43,504 nt of DNA from a virus (Duplodnaviria; Heunggongvirae; Uroviricota; Caudoviricetes), in IMG/VR virus record IMGVR_UViG_646862326_000012, positions 1 to 43,504 of that record; one strand, given 5' to 3'. Positions 33,361-43,504 of the stretch are shown piece by piece. Positions within the stretch are counted from its first letter, which is position 1; each line of letters starts with the position of its first letter. The notes beneath the pieces were generated by a model that saw nothing but the letters and a program-made list of their open reading frames with translations, made no database searches and had not been told where the DNA came from. The position numbers and the translations under genes are program-made.

Positions 33361-36300
33361 ATGGGTAAAGGCAGCAGTAAGGGGCATACCCCGCGCGAAG
33401 CGAAGGACAACCTGAAGTCCACGCAGTTGCTGAGTGTGATCGATGCCATCAGCGAAGGGCCGGTTGAAGGTCCGGTGGATGGGTTAAAAAGCGTGCTGCT
33501 GAACAGTACGCCGGTGCTGGACAGTGAGGGGAATACCAATATCTCCGGTGTCACGGTGGTGTTCCGGGCAGGTGAGCAGGAGCAGACACCGCCGGAGGGG
33601 TTTGAATCCTCCGGTTCCGAGACGGTGCTGGGTACGGAAGTGAAATATGACACGCCGATCACCCGCACCATTACGTCGGCAAACATCGACCGACTGCGCT
33701 TTACCTTCGGTGTGCAGGCACTGGTGGAAACCACTTCAAAGGGTGACCGGAATCCGTCGGAAGTCCGCCTGCTGGTTCAGATACAGCGTAACGGTGGCTG
33801 GGTGACGGAAAAAGACATCACCATTAAGGGCAAAACCACCTCGCAGTATCTGGCCTCGGTGGTGGTGGATAACCTGCCGCCGCGCCCGTTTAATATCCGG
33901 ATGCGCAGGATGACGCCGGACAGCACCACAGACCAGCTGCAGAACAAAACGCTCTGGTCGTCATACACCGAAATCATCGATGTGAAACAGTGCTACCCGA
34001 ACACGGCACTGGTCGGCGTGCAGGTGGATTCGGAGCAGTTCGGCAGCCAGCAGGTGAGCCGTAATTATCATCTTCGCGGGCGCATTCTGCAGGTGCCGTC
34101 GAATTATAACCCGCAGACGCGGCAATACAGCGGTATCTGGGACGGAACGTTAAAACCGGCATACAGCAACAACATGGCCTGGTGTCTGTGGGATATGCTG
34201 ACCCACCCGCGCTACGGCATGGGGAAACGTCTTGGTGCGGCAGATGTGGATAAATGGGCGCTGTATGTCATCGGCCAGAATTGCGACCAGTCAGTGCCGG
34301 ACGGCTTTGGCGGCACGGAGCCGCGCATCACCTGTAATGCCTGGCTGACCACACAGCGCAAGGCGTGGGATGTGCTCAGTGATTTCTGCTCGGCGATGCG
34401 CTGTATGCCGGTATGGAACGGGCAGACGCTGACGTTCGTGCAGGACCGACCGTCGGATAAGGTGTGGACCTATAACCGCAGTAATGTGGTGATGCCGGAT
34501 GATGGCGCGCCGTTCCGCTACAGCTTCAGCGCCCTGAAGGACCGCCATAATGCCGTTGAGGTGAACTGGATTGACCCGGACAACGGCTGGGAGACGGCGA
34601 CAGAGCTTGTGGAGGACACGCAGGCCATTGCCCGTTACGGTCGTAACGTCACGAAGATGGATGCCTTTGGCTGTACCAGTCGGGGGCAGGCACACCGCGC
34701 CGGGCTGTGGCTGATTAAAACAGAACTGCTGGAAACGCAGACCGTGGACTTCAGCGTGGGTGCAGAAGGGCTTCGCCATGTACCGGGCGATGTCATTGAA
34801 ATCTGCGATGATGACTATGCGGGTATCAGCACCGGCGGGCGCGTGCTGGCGGTGAACAGCCAGACGCGGACACTGACGCTCGACCGTGAAATCACGCTGC
34901 CATCCTCCGGCACCACGCTGATAAGCCTGGTTGACGGACAGGGGAATCCGGTCAGCGTGGAGGTCCAGTCCGTCACCGACGGCGTGAAGGTAAAAGTGAG
35001 CCGGGTTCCTGATGGCGTTGCCGAGTACAGCGTGTGGGGGCTGAAGCTGCCGACGCTGCGCCAGCGCCTGTTCCGCTGCGTGAGTATCCGTGAGAATGAC
35101 GACGGCACGTATGCCATCACCGCTGTGCAGCATGTGCCGGAGAAAGAGGCCATCGTGGATAACGGGGCGCACTTTGACGGCGACCAGAGCGGCACGGTGA
35201 ATGGTGTCACGCCGCCAGCAGTGCAGCACCTGACCGCAGAAGTCACCGCAGACAGCGGGGAATACCAGGTGCTGGCGCGCTGGGATACGCCGAAGGTGGT
35301 GAAGGGTGTGAGCTTTATGCTTCGCCTGACCGTGGCAGCGGATGACGGCAGTGAGCGGCTGGTCAGCACGGCCCGGACGACGGAAACCACATACCGATTC
35401 ACGCAACTGGCGCTGGGAAACTACAGGCTGACAGTCCGGGCGGTAAATGCGTGGGGACAGCAGGGCGATCCGGCGTCGGTATCGTTCCGGATTGCCGCAC
35501 CGTCAGCGCCGTCGCGGATTGAGCTGACGCCGGGCTATTTTCAGATCACCGCCACGCCGCATCTTGCCGTTTATGATCCGACGGTACAGTTTGAGTTCTG
35601 GTTCTCGGAAAAGCGGATTGCGGATATCAGGCAGGTTGAAACCACAGCCCGCTATCTTGGCACGGCGCTGTACTGGATAGCTGCCAGTATCAATATCAGG
35701 CCGGGCCATGATTATTATTTTTACGTTCGCAGTGTGAACACCGTTGGCAAATCGGCATTCGTGGAGGCTGTCGGTCGGGCGAGCGATGATGCGGAAGGTT
35801 ACCTGGATTTTTTCAAAGGCCAGATAACTGAATCCCATCTCGGCAAGGAGCTGCTGGAAAAAGTCGAGCTGACGGAGGATAACGCCAGCAAACTGGAGGA
35901 GTTTTCGAAAGAGTGGAAAGACGCCAACGATAAATGGAATGCCATGTGGGGCGTCAAAATTGAGCAGACCGAAGACGGCAGGCATTATGTCGCGGGGCTT
36001 GGCCTCAGCATGGAGGATACGGAGGAAGGCAAACTGAGCCAGTTCCTGGTTGCCGCTAACCGTATCGCGTTTATTGATCCGTCTAATGGCAACACAAGAC
36101 CAATGTTTGTTGGTCAGGGCGATCAGATATTCATGAACGACGTGTTCCTGAAACGCCTGACGGCTCCGACCATTACCAGCGGCGGTAATCCTCCGGCATT
36201 TTCCCTGACACCGGACGGGCGGCTGACGGCGAAAAATGCCGATATCAGCGGTAGCGTGAATGCGAACTCCGGGACGCTCAACAACGTCACGATTAACGAG

Positions 36301-36756
36301 AACTGTCGGGTTCTGGGAAAACTGTCCGCGAACCAGATTGAAGGCGATCTCGTTAAAACAGTGGGCAAAGCTTTCCCCCGGGACTCCCGTGCACCGGAGC
36401 GGTGGCCATCAGGGACCATTACCGTCAGGGTTTATGACGATCAGTCGTTTGACCGGCAAATTGTTATTCCAGCGGTGGCTTTCTGCGGTGCCAGACATGA
36501 GCGGGAGAATAGCGATACTTATTCGTCATGCCGCCTGATAGTGAAGAAAAACGGGGCTGAAATTTATAACCGAACGGCTCTGGATAATACTCTGATTTAC
36601 ACGGGTGTTATTGATATGCCTGCAGGCAGTGGCGTAATGACACTGGAGTTTTCTGTATCAGCATGGTGGGTAAATGGTTGGTATCCCACAGCAAGTATCA
36701 GCGATTTGCTGGTTGTTGTGATGAAGAAAGCCACTGCAGGCATCACGATTAGCTGA
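33361..36756 (+). CDS. J: Host specificity / central tail fibre protein gpJ
   Basis: 1131 aa; strong colinear similarity to lambda J over most of its length; the C-terminal approx. 150 aa appear divergent. Confidence 0.9.
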
Positions 36757-36823: not shown

Positions 36824-37423
36824 ATGCGTAAATTATGTGCTGTTATTCTGTCCGCAGTAGTCTGGCTGGTTGCCGCTGGTACGCCAGCGAGCGCAGCAGA
36901 GCATCAGTCCACACTAAGCGCCGGGTATCTTCAGACCCATACTGATATGCCAGGCAGCGATGACCTGAAGGGCATTAACGTGAAATACCGTTATGAATTT
37001 ACGGACACGCTGGGGCTGGTGACGTCATTCAGCTATGCAGGAGACAAGAATCGCCAGCTTACCCGTTACAGCGATACCCGCTGGCATGAAGATTCCGTTC
37101 GTAACCGCTGGTTCAGCGTGATGGCGGGGCCGTCTGTGCGCGTGAATGAATGGTTCAGCGCGTATGCGATCGCGGGTGTGGCTTACAGCCGTGTGTCGAC
37201 TTTTTCCGGGGATTATCTTCAGGTGACCGACAACAAGGGGGATACGCACGATGTGCTGACCGGAAGTGATGACGGTCGCCACAGCAACACGTCTCTGGCG
37301 TGGGGGGCTGGCGTGCAGTTTAACCCGACCGAATTCGTGGCCATTGATATTGCTTATGAAGGTTCCGGCAGTGGCGACTGGCGCACTGACGGTTTCATCG
37401 TGGGTGTCGGTTATAAATTCTGA
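36824..37423 (+). CDS. lom: Lom-like outer membrane beta-barrel protein (Ail/Lom/OmpX family)
   Basis: 199 aa; signal peptide (AAGTPASA); alternating amphipathic beta-strand pattern ending in ...VGVGYKF, typical of the Ail/Lom family; same position as lambda lom. Confidence 0.85.
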
Positions 37424-37450
37424 TTAGCCAGGTAACACAGTGTTATGACA

Positions 37451-37477
37451 GCCCGCCGGTTCAGGCGGGCTTTTTTG
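37451..37477 (+). terminator. Rho-independent terminator after lom
   Basis: GCCCGCCGGTTCAGGCGGGC followed by TTTTTT. Confidence 0.6.
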
Positions 37478-37481
37478 TGGA

Positions 37482-39845
37482 GTGGATATGGCAGCAGTAA
37501 AAATCTCAGGTGTGCTGAAAGATGGTGCGGGTAAACCAATACAGAACTGCACTATTCAACTGAAGGCAAAGCGTAACAGCACCACGGTACTGGTGAACAC
37601 GGTGGCCTCTGAAAATCCGGATGAAGCCGGGCGTTACAGCATGGATGTTGAGTATGGCCAGTACAGCGTCATCCTGCTGGTTGAAGGTTTTCCGCCTTCA
37701 CATGCCGGGACCATTACCGTCTATGAAGGCTCCAGACCAGGTACGCTGAATGATTTTCTCGGTGCCATGACGGAAGATGATGTCATGCCGGAGGCATTGC
37801 GTCGTTTTGAGGCAATGGTGGAAGAAGCGGCACGCAACGCCGAAGCCGCCTCTCAGAGCGCAGCGGCGGCAAAGAAATCCGAAACTGCAGCGGCATCATC
37901 GAAGAACGCGGCGAAAACCTCAGAAACGAATGCAGCTAACAGCGCACAGGCGGCAGCGACCTCACAGACTGCATCGGCAAACTCCGCGACAGCAGCCAAA
38001 AAATCAGAAACCAACGCGAAAAACAGTGAGACAGCCGCAAAGACGAGCGAAACCAACGCAAAGTCCAGCCAGACGGCAGCGAAAACAAGCGAAACGAATG
38101 CCAAAGCCAGTGAAACTGCGGCGAAAAGCAGTCAGGATGCAGCAGCCGAAAGCGAGAGTGCTGCAGCTGGTTCTGCGACTTCAGCAGCTGGATCAGCAAC
38201 TGCTGCGGCTAACAGCCAGAAAGCCGCGAAGACGAGCGAAACTAACGCAAAGTCCAGCCAGACGGCAGCGAAGACCAGCGAAACGAATGCCAAAGCCAGC
38301 GAAACTGCGGCGAAAAACAGTCAGGATGCAGCAGCCCAAAGCGAGAGTGCCGCAGCTGGTTCTGCAACAGCGGCAGCTAATAGCCAAAAAGCTGCAAAAA
38401 CCAGTGAAACTAACGCAAAGACGAGTGAAACAAAAGCAGCAGCCAGCGAGACAGAAGCAACGTCAGCCGCAACAAGAGCAGAGAATGCAGCCCGGATTGC
38501 AGAAGATGCCGCTGATCCTGCTTCTGTCCCTCCGCTTCCTGATATCTGGCTACCTTTGAATGATTCTCTGGAAGCGATAACAGGGTATGCCCCGGGCTAT
38601 AAAACAATAACCATCGGCAGTGATGAAATAACAATGCCTGTTAATGGCATATGCCAATTTAGCCGGGCTTCATCTGCAACGTATATTGATAAGTCCGGGC
38701 ATATTACCGTGGCAGGCAATAACGTTCCTCGTTTTGAAAAATATGGTTTGCTGATAGAGAATCAGCGAACAAACATGTTCGTAAATAGTTTTAATCCTGA
38801 TGCGTGGAATAAAAGCGGTGGTATATCTGTAACATCATCAACAGATGAATTTGAGTTTAAATATGGACGTTTCACAGTAGGAAGTGAGATAGCAGGAACG
38901 ACAACAGGGAGAAATATATGCACAGTTGCTGGTAATAAAGGCATAGATGTGACTGGCGATGATCAGTACAGTAAAGGTCCGTATGTTACCGCGTCGTTCA
39001 GGGTAAGAAGTGATCTCAATGTTCGCGCACGTATCCGTTTTGAACGGTATAACTCGGAAGGATACACTTTCCTTTGTGACGCCTATTTGTCATTACAGAC
39101 TCATGAACTACAAATTACGGGTGGTAATGCCCAGCTATTAACAGCAAACTTTGAAATCGACCCTGGTAGTGGATGGATATATTTTCAGGCAACACTGAAA
39201 TGTCTGCCAGAATGGGGAATGGTTGGTACGCAGCTGCAAATTGCAGCCGACAGAGCAGTGGGGGCTTTTGCAACAGGTGACTGGATAGAAGTAACCACCC
39301 CGCAATTCGAGTATGGTGCTTGTGCAACTTCCTTCATCATAACGACAACAGAGCCAGCGACTCGTGCATCAGATTTATGTAAATTTCCGCTGATGAAAAA
39401 TATGTATACCATGCCTTTTACGTTCATGGCGGAAGTCCATAAAAACTGGTTTATTTCTCATAATGCAGCACCGCGTGTCATTGATTCAGAAAATCACCAG
39501 TCCGGAGGCCCATTTATTATGGGGTTTGGTTCTTCTGGAACTATCAGTCAGGACGGTTATTCGTATTGCGATATAGGCGGGGCTAACCGACGTGTATATG
39601 AATCATGCGGAGTAAGGGATCTCGTTATGGGATTCAGGGTTAAGGCTGACGGCATGACATGCTCATTTGCAAATAAGCATATAAGCACTGAAACAAAAAC
39701 AGTATGGAAATATATTCGTGAAGCAGCCGTGATTCGTATCGGGGGGCAAACGACGACAGGATTACGACACCTTAATGGTCATATAAAAAACCTCCGTTTC
39801 TGGAACAGAGCATTGTCAGATACGCAGCTTAAGGAATACGTATAA
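37482..39845 (+). CDS. stf: Side tail fibre protein (Stf-like N-terminus, Ala/Ser/Thr-rich repeat collar, AT-rich C-terminal lectin-like domain)
   Basis: 787 aa. N-terminus MAVKISGVLKDGAGKPIQNCTIQLKA resembles lambda Stf. Central tandem repeats (AAKTSETNAKSSQTAAK...). C-terminus ends ...NLRFWNRALSDTQLKEYV, reminiscent of LamG/ConA-like lectin domains. Confidence 0.85.
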   Translation: MDMAAVKISGVLKDGAGKPIQNCTIQLKAKRNSTTVLVNTVASENPDEAGRYSMDVEYGQYSVILLVEGFPPSHAGTITVYEGSRPGTLNDFLGAMTEDDVMPEALRRFEAMVEEAARNAEAASQSAAAAKKSETAAASSKNAAKTSETNAANSAQAAATSQTASANSATAAKKSETNAKNSETAAKTSETNAKSSQTAAKTSETNAKASETAAKSSQDAAAESESAAAGSATSAAGSATAAANSQKAAKTSETNAKSSQTAAKTSETNAKASETAAKNSQDAAAQSESAAAGSATAAANSQKAAKTSETNAKTSETKAAASETEATSAATRAENAARIAEDAADPASVPPLPDIWLPLNDSLEAITGYAPGYKTITIGSDEITMPVNGICQFSRASSATYIDKSGHITVAGNNVPRFEKYGLLIENQRTNMFVNSFNPDAWNKSGGISVTSSTDEFEFKYGRFTVGSEIAGTTTGRNICTVAGNKGIDVTGDDQYSKGPYVTASFRVRSDLNVRARIRFERYNSEGYTFLCDAYLSLQTHELQITGGNAQLLTANFEIDPGSGWIYFQATLKCLPEWGMVGTQLQIAADRAVGAFATGDWIEVTTPQFEYGACATSFIITTTEPATRASDLCKFPLMKNMYTMPFTFMAEVHKNWFISHNAAPRVIDSENHQSGGPFIMGFGSSGTISQDGYSYCDIGGANRRVYESCGVRDLVMGFRVKADGMTCSFANKHISTETKTVWKYIREAAVIRIGGQTTTGLRHLNGHIKNLRFWNRALSDTQLKEYV
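38041..38369. repeat. In-frame tandem duplication (approx. 189-bp unit, two near-identical copies) inside the tail fibre gene
   Basis: 38041-38180 and 38230-38369 are near-identical (for example AGACGAGCGAAAC[C/T]AACGCAAAGTCCAGCCAGACGGCAGCGAA...); the 189-bp offset preserves the reading frame. Confidence 0.8.
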
Positions 39846-40114
39846 TGCGGGATATAACATTACGATTCGATAACAGAGAACAGTTTAACGCAATTGTATA
39901 TGACAGTGGCCTGTTCAGTCTTGAAGAAGAAAATGGGATTCTTGTTGATGTTATTGGTTGCATTATCGATTACGAGGAGCCAGAAAACGAAAGATGTACA
40001 GGCATTGATCGCGGTGGTTTTTTCGTAAACATGAGGATTGTTGATAGCAGTAAAAACATATCTTCTTTAATGCCTTTCATTACGACAGATCAGCATGTAA
40101 GGACATGGGCTTAA
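39845..40114 (+). CDS. Hypothetical protein (89 aa), possible fibre accessory/assembly factor
   Basis: TAATG overlap with the stf stop; AT-rich; no recognised motif. Confidence 0.45.
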   Translation: MRDITLRFDNREQFNAIVYDSGLFSLEEENGILVDVIGCIIDYEEPENERCTGIDRGGFFVNMRIVDSSKNISSLMPFITTDQHVRTWA

Positions 40115-40126
40115 TGGAGTAAGACA

Positions 40127-41167
40127 ATGGTTACAAAAACAGTAATTCCTGATGACATCAAAACGCTAAAATCGGATGTTAGTAAATTAAAAACCGATCA
40201 AGGAAACTACGCAACAAAATCTTATGTAGACAATAAAACAACATGGAATGGTTATTGCAATGTAATCTATGATCAAAAAACATTGCCAACAACTGGAACT
40301 ATATTCAGCGGTAAGCTGCATTTGTCAAATAAGACTGGTGAAACGGAAAACGCTTATAGTGACATATATACCAGAAAAAATATTGATGGTACTAAAGATA
40401 CAATGACGAGGATCGTCACACATAACGGGAAAAAAGGTATCTTTTGGGACTTTAGTGATCTTTACGGAGGAACTTTAATTTTTCCAGGCAGTGATGGTTA
40501 CCTTAAGATGGGGAACTGTCTCATGTCGTATGGTGTGCGGGGAAGTAACGCGCTTATTAAGTTTGATAATACAGACTCATTGCAGATCAAATATGCTAAT
40601 CACGGGTCGACCATGACACTAAACACGCAAGGTACGGCGTATTCTGGTGTGTCGACGTTATTATGGGGAAATTCCAGTCGTCCAGTTGTTTATGAAATTA
40701 GGGATGATGGCGGGCTTTTTTTGTTTTATGCACAAAGGAACCCAGATAAAACCTATCAGCTTGAGATAAACGGGCCATGCAAGGCTACATCATTCGACCA
40801 GGTGTCGGACAGAGATCTTAAAGAAAACATTCAGGTTATTGATAATGCCACTGAGCGCATCAGATTAATGAATGGGTATACTTACCGTCTCAAGTCTAAT
40901 GGTATGCCTTATGCTGGCGTTATTGCGCAAGAGGCACTTAATGCAATCCCTGAATCAGTTGGTAGCACAATAAAGTACAAGAGCGGGGACAATGGGTCTG
41001 ATGGAGAAGAGGGAGAAAGATACTATACCGTCGATTACTCAGGCGTAACGGGTTTGCTTGTTCAGGTAGCCAGAGAGTCAGACGACAGGATAACAGCACT
41101 GGAAGAAGAAAACGCAGAATTAAGACAAAGATTATCTGCAATTGAGGCGGCGCTTGCGTCTAAATAA
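40127..41167 (+). CDS. Tail fibre / tailspike-like protein with C-terminal S74 intramolecular chaperone (autoproteolytic) domain
   Basis: 346 aa. C-terminal SDRDLKENIQVIDNA...LMNGYTYRLKSNG...AGVIAQEA...YTVDYSGVTGLLVQ then coiled coil: the signature of the peptidase S74 / endosialidase chaperone domain. AT-rich. Confidence 0.7.
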   Translation: MVTKTVIPDDIKTLKSDVSKLKTDQGNYATKSYVDNKTTWNGYCNVIYDQKTLPTTGTIFSGKLHLSNKTGETENAYSDIYTRKNIDGTKDTMTRIVTHNGKKGIFWDFSDLYGGTLIFPGSDGYLKMGNCLMSYGVRGSNALIKFDNTDSLQIKYANHGSTMTLNTQGTAYSGVSTLLWGNSSRPVVYEIRDDGGLFLFYAQRNPDKTYQLEINGPCKATSFDQVSDRDLKENIQVIDNATERIRLMNGYTYRLKSNGMPYAGVIAQEALNAIPESVGSTIKYKSGDNGSDGEEGERYYTVDYSGVTGLLVQVARESDDRITALEEENAELRQRLSAIEAALASK

Positions 41168-41173
41168 TATTAA

Positions 41174-41194
41174 GGGGCCGAGCGCCCCGTTTTA
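41174..41194 (+). terminator. Hairpin plus T-run after the S74-domain fibre gene
   Basis: GGGGCCGAGCGCCCCG followed by TTTTATT. Confidence 0.45.
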
Positions 41195-41497
41195 TTGAGT
41201 AGGATGAAAATGGATATAACACCTTTCCTTCATGCGCTTTGTGCTGTGGCTGCGCAGCTACTGATTGGTCTTTTTACCGGGAACTGGGCTTACGGGGCGA
41301 TAGCCGGTTGTACGTTCTTCATTGCGCGTGAACACACCCAGGCAGAATATCGCTGGATTGAAATGTTCGGGCATGGCAAGCGAATGAATATGCCGTGGTG
41401 GGGCGGTTTTGATCCGCGCGCGTGGGATGTGGCAAGCCTGATGGATTTTGCTGTGCCGGTGGTGGCGTGTCTGCTGATCTGGCTGTTGATCCGTTAA
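41195..41497 (+). CDS. Hypothetical small membrane protein (100 aa)
   Basis: Two hydrophobic segments (LHALCAVAAQLLIGLF; FAVPVVACLLIWLLI); last rightward gene before the convergent RT module. Confidence 0.5.
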   Translation: MSRMKMDITPFLHALCAVAAQLLIGLFTGNWAYGAIAGCTFFIAREHTQAEYRWIEMFGHGKRMNMPWWGGFDPRAWDVASLMDFAVPVVACLLIWLLIR

Positions 41498-41604: not shown

Positions 41605-42981
41605 CTATGATATTCCTGAGATATCCTCTTCAAGCTCTTTTACTGATTTCGCAATTTTAAATTTAAACTTCCTCTCTATTTCACTATTGCTAAGTTTTTT
41701 TTCCTTCTCTTTACCTATCCACATAGAAACAAGTTCTCGTTTCTGAGATATATGTAAATTATCAAAGTTAGGTATGTATTTAAAAGTCTCCGCTCTACCT
41801 CTGCGGAGTTCATAGAAAGTTTTAATTAAAGACTTTGGTTTTATTTCTGATGAAAGGCCGAATCGGCGGATAAGATTATTGATAGTATGATTAACAGAGC
41901 GAAGTTGAGCTGTTGAGGTTATTTGTGAGAAGTACGATACCCATCCCAATCGTTTACCTTCAAACACACATCCCGTAATTCTGAGATTTAGTTTCCACTG
42001 ACAATATGCAACAGCTCGTTCTTTATCACGCTTACTTTTAGCTTGTAGTAGAGCGTGCCTGTATGCAGTAAAAATCCTTGCTAAAGATGACTCAAATCTA
42101 AGAATGCTCTCATGTTTTATCAATAATTCTCGATTTTCTATGTGGTATCCCAAAAAGTTAAAACTTTCATCCAAGCTGCCTACTTTGGATTTTGAGTTCT
42201 CTTCATTTAATGGATGTGGGTTTAAATTTAATGATTGAAGCTTATCAATGATATGAGAAGCTATTTTTGTTGCTTGATATTTTGGTGTTAAAATAAGAAT
42301 GTCATCAACGTATCGCATGTACCATATGTCATGCATTTTATTGATTTCATCATCAAAATTAGATAGTGATATTTCAGCTAAAATGTTTGATATCGCTAAT
42401 CCCTGAGGTACTCCTCTGGTATTATTCGGGATACCTTTGCTTCCTGTTGTTCCACTTACAGTAGGCACGATTAATGATGATGTTATTAACTGTCTAATTT
42501 CTTTTTTTCTAATTTTATTTTTTATTGCATTAATTATCAATTTATGTTCAATTGAAGGATAGAAACTTTTAAGATCTATTTTTGCATATTCAGCATAAAG
42601 ACTGCTGTTTAATGCTTCTTTCAATGAGTCAATTACTGTATGTGGTAGTTTTAATCTGGAGTTAGGATATATTTCCGTAAGGCATTCACAGAGAGCTCTA
42701 AGAGTAATTCTGTCCCTAGCAGTTGGTATGGAAATCTGTCTGGGTGTAGAGTTAGCGCCTTTAGATATTAATTTTTCTTTATATGCTGTAAATTTGTAAT
42801 TGCCAGAGTTAACCTTTTCAAAAATGAAAGCGATCTCATTTTTTATTGTCAAATCAAGTTTTGATGGGCGAATCCGATCTATGCCAATCGCTCCTGATTC
42901 TTTGATTTTTTCAGTGTATACTTTTAGAAGGTTTTTTTTCGAGAATGACTTTTTAAAAATTCTGCTTGCAGTCATAGTCAA
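41605..42981 (-). CDS. Reverse transcriptase (defence-associated / Abi- or retron-like RT) with approx. 200-aa C-terminal extension
   Basis: 458 aa, AT-rich. RT motifs readable in order: IPTARDRITLRAL (motif 1/2), IDLKSFYPSI (motif A aspartate), GVPQGLAISNILAEISL (motif B), YVDD at residues 224-227 (nt 42301-42312, motif C), FLGYHI (motif E-like). Unclassified C-terminal region. Confidence 0.85.
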   Translation of the reverse strand: MTMTASRIFKKSFSKKNLLKVYTEKIKESGAIGIDRIRPSKLDLTIKNEIAFIFEKVNSGNYKFTAYKEKLISKGANSTPRQISIPTARDRITLRALCECLTEIYPNSRLKLPHTVIDSLKEALNSSLYAEYAKIDLKSFYPSIEHKLIINAIKNKIRKKEIRQLITSSLIVPTVSGTTGSKGIPNNTRGVPQGLAISNILAEISLSNFDDEINKMHDIWYMRYVDDILILTPKYQATKIASHIIDKLQSLNLNPHPLNEENSKSKVGSLDESFNFLGYHIENRELLIKHESILRFESSLARIFTAYRHALLQAKSKRDKERAVAYCQWKLNLRITGCVFEGKRLGWVSYFSQITSTAQLRSVNHTINNLIRRFGLSSEIKPKSLIKTFYELRRGRAETFKYIPNFDNLHISQKRELVSMWIGKEKEKKLSNSEIERKFKFKIAKSVKELEEDISGIS

Positions 42982-43504
42982 TCCAAAGATATATTAATGG
43001 GAGTATATAAAGGGCGGCAGTAGTAAATATTCGAAGTAATATCCATAAAATAACAATTATTTTTTCTTTTTGTGTGGGGATCCTCGTCGTAAGTCCAACT
43101 TGAGTTACCCTTGAAATTTTATCATCTATGTCACGGTGATTCTCAACCTCATTGAGCAAATTAAAATATTTTTCTTTCTGTTCAAGAGTTAACTGTTGAC
43201 TGGTGGTAATGTCAAAATAGAGTCGCTGTAGTGCAATATAATTCCTTCTCATGGCTATTGCTCGACCACGAAAATCTAGGTTAGATACGATCAGCGAAAT
43301 ACCCAGTAGGGCCACCGAAAGTATTGCCGCAACGATATCTGTGTTATCTCCTAGAACTTTTGGAAATCGCAACGTTACAATTGAAAGTACCGCACTCAAT
43401 ATAGCATACCAAACGAGGATAAATTGAGAGTGCTTTTCAAGCCATTCTAGTCGATGGTGCGCTTGGATACGGGCTTTATATGTAAACCAAATATTGTCAT
43501 GCAT
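42953..43504 (-). CDS. Multi-pass membrane protein upstream of and overlapping the RT (possibly truncated at the window edge)
   Basis: At least 183 aa, with 3-4 predicted TM helices (FILVWYAILSAVLSIVTL; IVAAILSVALLGISLIVS; IIVILWILLRIFTTAALYILPLIYLWI). Its 3' end overlaps the RT start by 29 nt, so co-transcription is likely. The ORF reaches the last base of the window, so the true start may lie beyond it. Confidence 0.6.
   Translation of the reverse strand: MHDNIWFTYKARIQAHHRLEWLEKHSQFILVWYAILSAVLSIVTLRFPKVLGDNTDIVAAILSVALLGISLIVSNLDFRGRAIAMRRNYIALQRLYFDITTSQQLTLEQKEKYFNLLNEVENHRDIDDKISRVTQVGLTTRIPTQKEKIIVILWILLRIFTTAALYILPLIYLWIDYDCKQNF

Follow-up and report, generated by a model that had tools for sequence, protein, structure and literature searches.

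A side tail fibre gene of a lambda-like E. coli prophage probably encodes the proximal subunit of a compound fibre with a lectin-like module

The host range of lambda-like phages depends in part on their side tail fibres, which are also an engineered part of phage-derived delivery particles. The virus record IMGVR_UViG_646862326_000012, analysed here over its 43,504 nucleotides (nt; hereafter the window), is a lambda-like E. coli prophage with a side tail fibre gene, stf (37482-39845; features are on the + strand unless stated), that starts like lambda Stf and ends in a lectin-like module. This raises the question of what such a fibre presents at its far end. An initial annotation regarded the lectin-like module as the fibre tip. 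The module is probably not the end of the fibre, as a distal fibre gene with an S74 chaperone follows in the same predicted transcription unit. We consider it likely that the stf product forms the proximal part of a compound side tail fibre, made of two proteins and probably branched.

Two genes overlooked by the initial annotation lie downstream of stf, co-oriented with it and part of the same fibre module. The start of orf89 (39845-40114; 89 amino acids, aa) overlaps the stf stop codon (TAATG), and its product matches PHROG 1361 (E 1e-30), with no match in Pfam, NCBIfam, PADLOC or a PDB sequence search. It was found directly after this type of proximal fibre in 12 of the 12 related phage and prophage loci inspected, with or without a distal fibre gene. 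The distal fibre gene (40127-41167) has its own GGAG and encodes 346 aa that match the tail-fibre family PHROG 4563 end to end (664 bits) and PF13884 Peptidase_S74 (E 2.3e-12) at aa 227-278 (40805-40960); a PDB sequence search with this protein found nothing. S74 domains are intramolecular chaperones that fold the trimer and then cut themselves off. From knowledge of the family, autocleavage is predicted just before S226-D-R-D-L-K.

Judging by a terminator scan, stf appears to be co-transcribed with both genes. A terminator-like hairpin after lom (37450-37471; 8-bp stem with seven GC pairs, then a T run) would set the upstream limit of the unit, and a second (41174-41188; 5-bp GC stem with a T-rich tail) would close it. 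No strong terminator was predicted between these hairpins, only a few weak, low-GC matches inside genes. Because an S74 distal fibre follows and no terminator is predicted before 41174-41188, the lectin-like module more likely sits at the fibre joint, as a side or accessory domain, than at the distal end.

The distal fibre begins with a short anchor peptide, its first 15 residues being MVTKTVIPDDIKTLK. The pattern MVTKTVIP.DI..LK is kept wherever a related locus includes a distal fibre gene, and 32 phage records match the window peptide at E ≤ 0.1. Loci with the peptide occur in lambdoid phages, in the T5-like phage IrisVonRoten, in T1-like phages such as swan01 and in the 9g-like phage JenP1. 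The tail tips of these four families are unrelated, their common elements being the proximal fibre type and the ~90-aa open reading frame (ORF), and the gene order stf-orf89-distal fibre is conserved in all four. The distal fibre of the window is 93% identical over 333 aa to an 'endosialidase-like protein' of JenP1, a virulent Nonagvirus (locus L014, 3501-4556). At the level of sequence, this match points to a relatively recent cassette transfer between unrelated siphoviruses.

At the opposite end, Stf carries the lambda-Stf-like N-terminus that the initial annotation had proposed. This tail-attachment domain (aa 5-134; 37494-37883) matches Pfam PF08400, phage_tail_N, with E 8.1e-67 and 223.8 bits, exceeding the gathering threshold of 26.6 bits. 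The gene lies directly after J (33361-36756) and lom (36824-37423), as in the lambdoid tail operon. The view that the fibre is without a Tfa-chaperoned tip also holds: no Tfa (Caudo_TAP)-type chaperone was found downstream of stf among the window ORFs or by Pfam and PHROG. The whole protein matches PHROG 1419 'tail protein' end to end (1272 bits) and is 99.2% identical to the 'side tail fiber protein' of PhiR55_1; the same gene is already present in public phage records and in numerous bacterial genomes. E. coli C, K-12 and ECOR13 serve as plating hosts for PhiR55_1 and PhiR11_1.

The C-terminal lectin-like module (aa 366-787; 38577-39842) is a beta-sandwich region that matches ConA/LamG-like folds and probably comprises two domains. 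Profile searches place the NCBIfam family NF048003 GTA_spike_fiber at aa 424-629 (38751-39368; 48.2 bits, E 1.7e-12, cut-off 36), and a phmmer comparison of the module to the RcGTA head spike fibre Rcc01080 gave a weak match (E 9e-4). The motif NLRFWNRALSDTQLKEYV at the Stf C-terminus lies in a match to Pfam Laminin_G_3 (aa 735-783; 39684-39830; E 3.5e-4), where it aligns with the last 48 positions of the profile; at 21.2 bits, this match stays below the cut-off of 27.6. A first AlphaFold2 model, built from 26 sequences that were all 44-54% identical, reached a pLDDT of 56 and was confident at aa 435-613 only, and the modelling was redone. An exhaustive search of cluster representatives yielded 2053 clusters at E ≤ 1e-3, and a second alignment of 53 sequences included representatives 24-40% identical. 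With this alignment the module was modelled at pLDDT 89.7 and pTM 0.87, nearly all as beta-strand, apparently in two sandwich domains of the curved, jelly-roll type. In this model, a second sandwich made of the N-terminal strands and aa about 626-785 appears to enclose a variable central domain (about aa 441-605), these limits being taken from secondary structure and not from coordinates.

The top structural match of the module was the baseplate wedge protein gp46 of Pa193, and the galectin domain of the porcine adenovirus fibre was also among the Foldseek matches to the PDB. Whole-module matches in BFVD were other coliphage tail fibres and many proteins of uncultured phages that carry a ConA-like lectin/glucanase superfamily annotation. 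Hence the LamG/ConA-like call of the initial annotation is structurally supported by the Foldseek and BFVD matches of the model, while membership of Laminin_G_3 itself is not borne out by the sequence score. A conservation profile identifies the strands at the domain junctions as the most conserved (RASxATY...PRFE..GLLIE.QRTN, TPQxE.G...SFI.T...TRASD and IRIGGQT..G.RHL.GH..N.R.W) and the two sandwich cores as the most variable parts of the module. The module would most likely act as an accessory glycan-binding domain at the fibre joint.

The mosaic nature of the gene, also proposed initially, is evident from nucleotide identity to related loci in 100-nt windows. Compared to 2G7b and PhiR46_1, identity is 97-100% up to ~38400, 40-70% across the C-terminal module and orf89, 50-86% in the distal fibre and again 97-100% from ~41100. 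The comparison to PhiR55_1 and MS1657 shows 95-100% identity to ~40100, an unrelated distal fibre and 89-97% from ~41200. Breakpoints are thus placed at about 38400, about 40115-40170 and about 41100-41190. At the left recombination junction (38400-38450), identity to 2G7b/PhiR46_1 drops from >90% to about 60-70%, and the protein alignment diverges after ...AKTSETNAK.SET. The three compositionally distinct parts of stf described initially were recovered, with GC contents of 53% in the N-terminus, 55% in the collar (AT skew ~ +0.6, A over T) and 43.5% in the C-terminal ~420 aa. Low GC carries on 3' of stf, through orf89 (38%) and the distal fibre gene (40.5%).

The encoded proteins follow the same pattern. 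Identity is 88-99% among lambdoid relatives for the N-terminus and 56-100% to relatives for the collar (86-100% where the duplication unit described below is carried), and the C-terminal module is 36-51% identical to other alleles and 99% to those of PhiR55_1 and MS1657. The orf89 product is 28-31% identical to all other alleles examined, and the distal fibre 71% identical to that of 2G7b, whose C-domain is 50% identical, and 23% to that of PhiR55_1. In PhiR55_1 and MS1657, Stf and orf89 are 98-99% identical to the window and the distal fibre only 23%. The orf89 products of PhiR46_1 and 2G7b are 95% identical but their C-modules only 43%, and the C-module, orf89 and distal fibre can therefore be considered three separately exchangeable cassettes. 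We also considered whether orf89 co-varies with the C-domain (overall correlation 0.63), as a dedicated chaperone might; co-variation as a strict rule was rejected by the same pair of phages.

Homologues ~50% identical are found in T5-, T1- and 9g-like virulent phages, which supports the horizontal acquisition suggested initially. Among 5426 complete E. coli genomes, the C-module allele of the window occurs in 140 (~2.5%), always at ≥97% nt identity, and ~130 hold at least 80% of stf. DNA matching stf, nearly always the N-terminus and collar only, is found in 4822 genomes (~89%), with a median of 2 matching places per genome and a maximum of 14. Such multi-place matches would provide an abundant substrate for recombination.

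The collar (aa 114-345, 232 aa; 37821-38516) consists of ~33 unbroken heptads: a Fourier analysis peaks at 7.0 and 3.5 residues, and of the two core positions one holds Ala in 32 of 33 heptads and the other Ser in 29 of 33. This sequence would form a trimeric coiled-coil shaft ~34 nm long. ORFs in alternative frames or antisense in this region (e.g. 37777-38559) were put down to the low-complexity repeat. Within the collar, Tandem Repeats Finder reports a period of 189 (38022-38365, 1.8 copies, 92% matches). The high-identity cores given in the initial annotation, copy 1 at 38041-38180 and copy 2 at 38230-38369, were compared at a lag of 189. The 189-bp unit corresponds to 63 aa, exactly 9 heptads and ~9 nm. 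The in-frame duplication of the initial annotation is therefore real, while its description as near-identical applies only loosely: the copies agree at 131 of 140 nt at lag 189 (6.4% different), and about half of the codon differences between them are synonymous. Copy 2 is one heptad (21 bp) shorter than copy 1, and the missing heptad is present in MS20654, 2G7b and Tritos.

That the duplication is recent did not hold, since it is shared with 2G7b, Tritos and PhiR46_1, and orthologous copies differ at 3-11 of 140 nt compared to 9-16 for paralogous copies from a single phage. Since low-complexity repeats are easily mis-assembled and the gene is mis-annotated in some genomes by the NCBI pipeline PGAP, the duplication might be suspected to be an assembly artefact, or hypervariable and of recent origin. 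We give this explanation practically no credence and regard it as already refuted: the gene length of 2364 bp is constant in 29 of the 30 best complete-genome matches, the remaining one carrying an IS2 insertion; both copies are present in the independently sequenced PhiR55_1, 2G7b, Tritos and PhiR46_1; and the copies are diverged, with orthologues clustering together. The sequence comparison thus indicates that the duplication is old, neither an artefact nor recent. The expectation of length variability was correct to the extent that variants in heptad units exist. MS20654, of the same prophage type, has one extra heptad (SASAAAA) in copy 2, IdasGreatGrand a single copy of the nine-heptad unit, and phage 21 and ev243 shorter collars. 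Collar length variation appears to be a slow, family-level polymorphism in heptad units and not hypervariability.

Combining these elements, a model for the fibre can be proposed. The PF08400 domain would anchor the Stf trimer at the tail tip, by homology to lambda Stf, and the ~33 Ala/Ser-core heptads would form the coiled-coil shaft, whose length could be altered by the old nine-heptad duplication and by occasional one-heptad insertions or deletions with the register kept. Each chain would end in the ConA/LamG-like beta-sandwich module, confidently modelled, which may contribute accessory glycan binding at the joint. With orf89 as a putative accessory protein, the distal fibre would dock via its conserved N-terminal peptide onto either the proximal fibre or orf89. 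Its S74 chaperone would fold the distal-fibre trimer and then self-cleave, leaving a distal fibre that presumably bears the terminal receptor-binding domain. Lectin module, orf89 and distal fibre are separate cassettes, swapped through recombination at conserved arms: the repeats of the collar, the region of the anchor peptide and the gene for a two-transmembrane protein downstream. Such swaps would re-target the phage.

Several points weigh against this model. Glycan binding by the module is read from fold class and weak homology, the PDB entry of the GTA fibre resolves only residues 2-10, outside the homologous part, and the Laminin_G_3 score falls short as described above. The attachment of the distal fibre to Stf, and its site, are deduced from sequence and analogy. 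Furthermore, a proximal fibre of this type and orf89 are found in phage 21 and ev243 with no distal fibre gene, and in these phages the lectin module can be the last fibre element. The latter observation would suit an unbranched fibre with the lectin-like module as sole distal receptor-binding tip and the 346-aa protein as an independent fibre attached elsewhere on the tail. The module has a lectin fold, and its alleles are 36-71% aa identical between phages, a divergence as expected of a receptor-binding domain. We nevertheless consider this arrangement unlikely: it leaves unexplained an anchor peptide conserved across four families that have unrelated tail tips and share the proximal type and orf89, no strong terminator is predicted between stf and the distal fibre gene, and a homologous T5-like system has been modelled as a proximal plus a distal fibre.

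Alternatively, the beta-sandwich module could have a structural role only, as the hub onto which the distal fibre docks, and bind no host glycan. Its best structural match, Pa193 gp46, is a baseplate wedge that carries a tail-fibre attachment loop, and the junction motifs are strongly conserved. However, a pure hub should be conserved throughout, yet the two sandwich cores vary most; the module comes in discrete alleles (about 40-60% identical), which are exchanged independently of orf89 and the distal fibre; and it is kept in phages without a distal fibre. A role confined to docking is thus improbable in our estimation. A glycan-degrading enzyme, i.e. a ConA-like glucanase or lyase acting as depolymerase in place of a lectin, is conceivable given that GH16 and PL7 enzymes belong to the ConA-like superfamily and that depolymerases are found on many phage fibres, but we rate it as very improbable. 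We hence retain the proximal subunit of a two-protein fibre, with an accessory lectin-like module, as the favoured explanation. A bolder extension, which as a whole we put forward tentatively and with some doubt, is that the module and orf89 form a portable, Tfa-independent 'fibre joint' common to four siphovirus families. Such a joint might bind a host glycan as a second receptor sensor and accept S74 distal fibres via a universal N-terminal plug peptide, with heptad number tuning reach through the O-antigen and orf89 representing a new accessory or adaptor class.

The boundaries of stf can be refined. The program ORF call runs from GTG 37482 (787 aa), and ATG 37488, preceded by GGAG 6 nt upstream, would give 785 aa. 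As PGAP also places the start at this ATG, stf probably extends over 37488-39845. A 100% identical copy of the locus adjoins prfC in E. coli strain N1, with the gene order L, C40-family peptidase, tail assembly, J, lom, stf, small ORF, second fibre and small membrane protein, followed on the opposite strand by a reverse transcriptase and a SLATT gene. In N1 the intact stf (locus L001, 6007-8364; 100% identical to window 37482-39845) is split by PGAP into a 'pseudogene' N-terminal fragment and a coding sequence with a mid-gene start, 'phage head spike fiber domain-containing protein'. This split is an annotation artefact present in many genomes. In some genomes stf is interrupted by IS5 or IS2 (locus L012, 1276-4696, of FDAARGOS_1249; hit H4, VTB96929v), which indicates fibre decay in resident prophages. 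Dozens of Stf database proteins are labelled 'partial', with ends scattered through the C-terminal module; we think that draft assemblies often break inside stf because its N-terminus and collar are multi-copy within genomes. Upstream, lom shows a local patch of divergence at about 37000-37300 (81-93% nt identity between relatives, with flanks at ~99%), which may stem from variable surface loops in this outer-membrane protein.

The right homology arm of the exchangeable region is the gene for a two-transmembrane protein (41210-41497, or from 41195; PHROG 1443), which is 91-97% identical among lambdoid relatives and is annotated in phage 21 as 'putative membrane protein, 2 TMDs'. No match was found in PADLOC, Pfam or NCBIfam. 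The protein stays conserved although the adjoining fibre cassettes are hypervariable, and it might be a lysogenic-conversion or exclusion factor. Beyond it, on the − strand, a UG17-class reverse transcriptase (PADLOC RT_UG17, 527 bits; 41605-42981) adjoins a reverse transcriptase-associated SLATT protein (42953-43504). By sequence, the two resemble a DRT-type anti-phage defence pair, placed at the right prophage end. The cargo at that position differs in related prophages: ImmA/IrrE with HTH and Bro-N, SitABCD, a methyltransferase, ParAB or a HEPN protein.

A widespread Stf type made of two proteins and three exchangeable cassettes is useful both for predicting host range from prophage sequence and for the design of chimeric fibres, for which the collar end, the anchor peptide and the two-transmembrane gene offer junctions. 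The gain is incremental, as mosaic fibres, lectin-like domains and S74 chaperones are already established. We found no paper describing this Stf type in lambdoid phages, and a literature search on the PhiR phages gave an unrelated defence paper only.

Comparison to known systems places the fibre between several precedents. The likeness to lambda Stf/Tfa lies in the PF08400 N-terminus, the position after J and lom and the Ala/Ser/Thr/Lys-rich repeat shaft. In contrast to lambda Stf, the window protein is without a lambda-type tip or a Tfa gene and has instead the lectin-like module, orf89 and an S74-chaperoned second fibre. The gp46 protein of the Pseudomonas phages Pa193/E217 differs in being a component of a myovirus baseplate triplex and not a fibre. 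To the RcGTA head spike fibre Rcc01080, which binds capsular polysaccharide (PMC7296036, PMC10218006), the relationship is one of remote homology over aa 424-629, above the curated cut-off and at very low identity; this spike is, however, a monomer that decorates the head of a gene transfer agent from an alphaproteobacterium.

Genetically supported branched, L-shaped fibres are known from LtfA-LtfB of DT57C and DT571/2 (Golomidova et al. 2016; PMC4728585). As proposed for the window, a tail-bound proximal fibre carries a second fibre protein, with O-antigen-specific, exchangeable receptor-binding domains. LtfA itself ends in S74, whereas the anchor of LtfB resembles phiEco32 gp15, and DT57C is absent among the 32 phage records matching the window anchor peptide. 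For these reasons the DT57C joint is analogous, but not demonstrably homologous.

Homology is clear for the lateral fibre module Gp22/Gp23/Gp24 of IrisVonRoten (Bas32, Tequintavirus), whose Gp22 is 52% identical over Stf aa 178-787, i.e. shaft and C-terminal module. Gp22 is followed by a 92-aa ORF that is 31% identical to orf89 and then by a distal fibre that shares the N-terminal peptide and the S74 chaperone. The window has the corresponding arrangement in one predicted unit: a homologous proximal fibre, a ~90-aa ORF and a distal fibre with the peptide and S74. IrisVonRoten differs in being a virulent phage with a T5-type N-terminal attachment domain where the window has a lambda-type one, and its distal fibre is a T-shaped protein of 574 aa with two receptor-binding domains, compared to 346 aa in the window. 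In the model of Humolli et al. 2025 (PMC11990801), Gp22 forms the proximal fibre, from which a C-terminal 'galectin-like' domain protrudes that the authors suggest could be an additional receptor-binding domain, and the distal fibre Gp24 is attached to Gp22. The compound architecture proposed here for a lambda-like prophage is thus already described for its homologue in IrisVonRoten.

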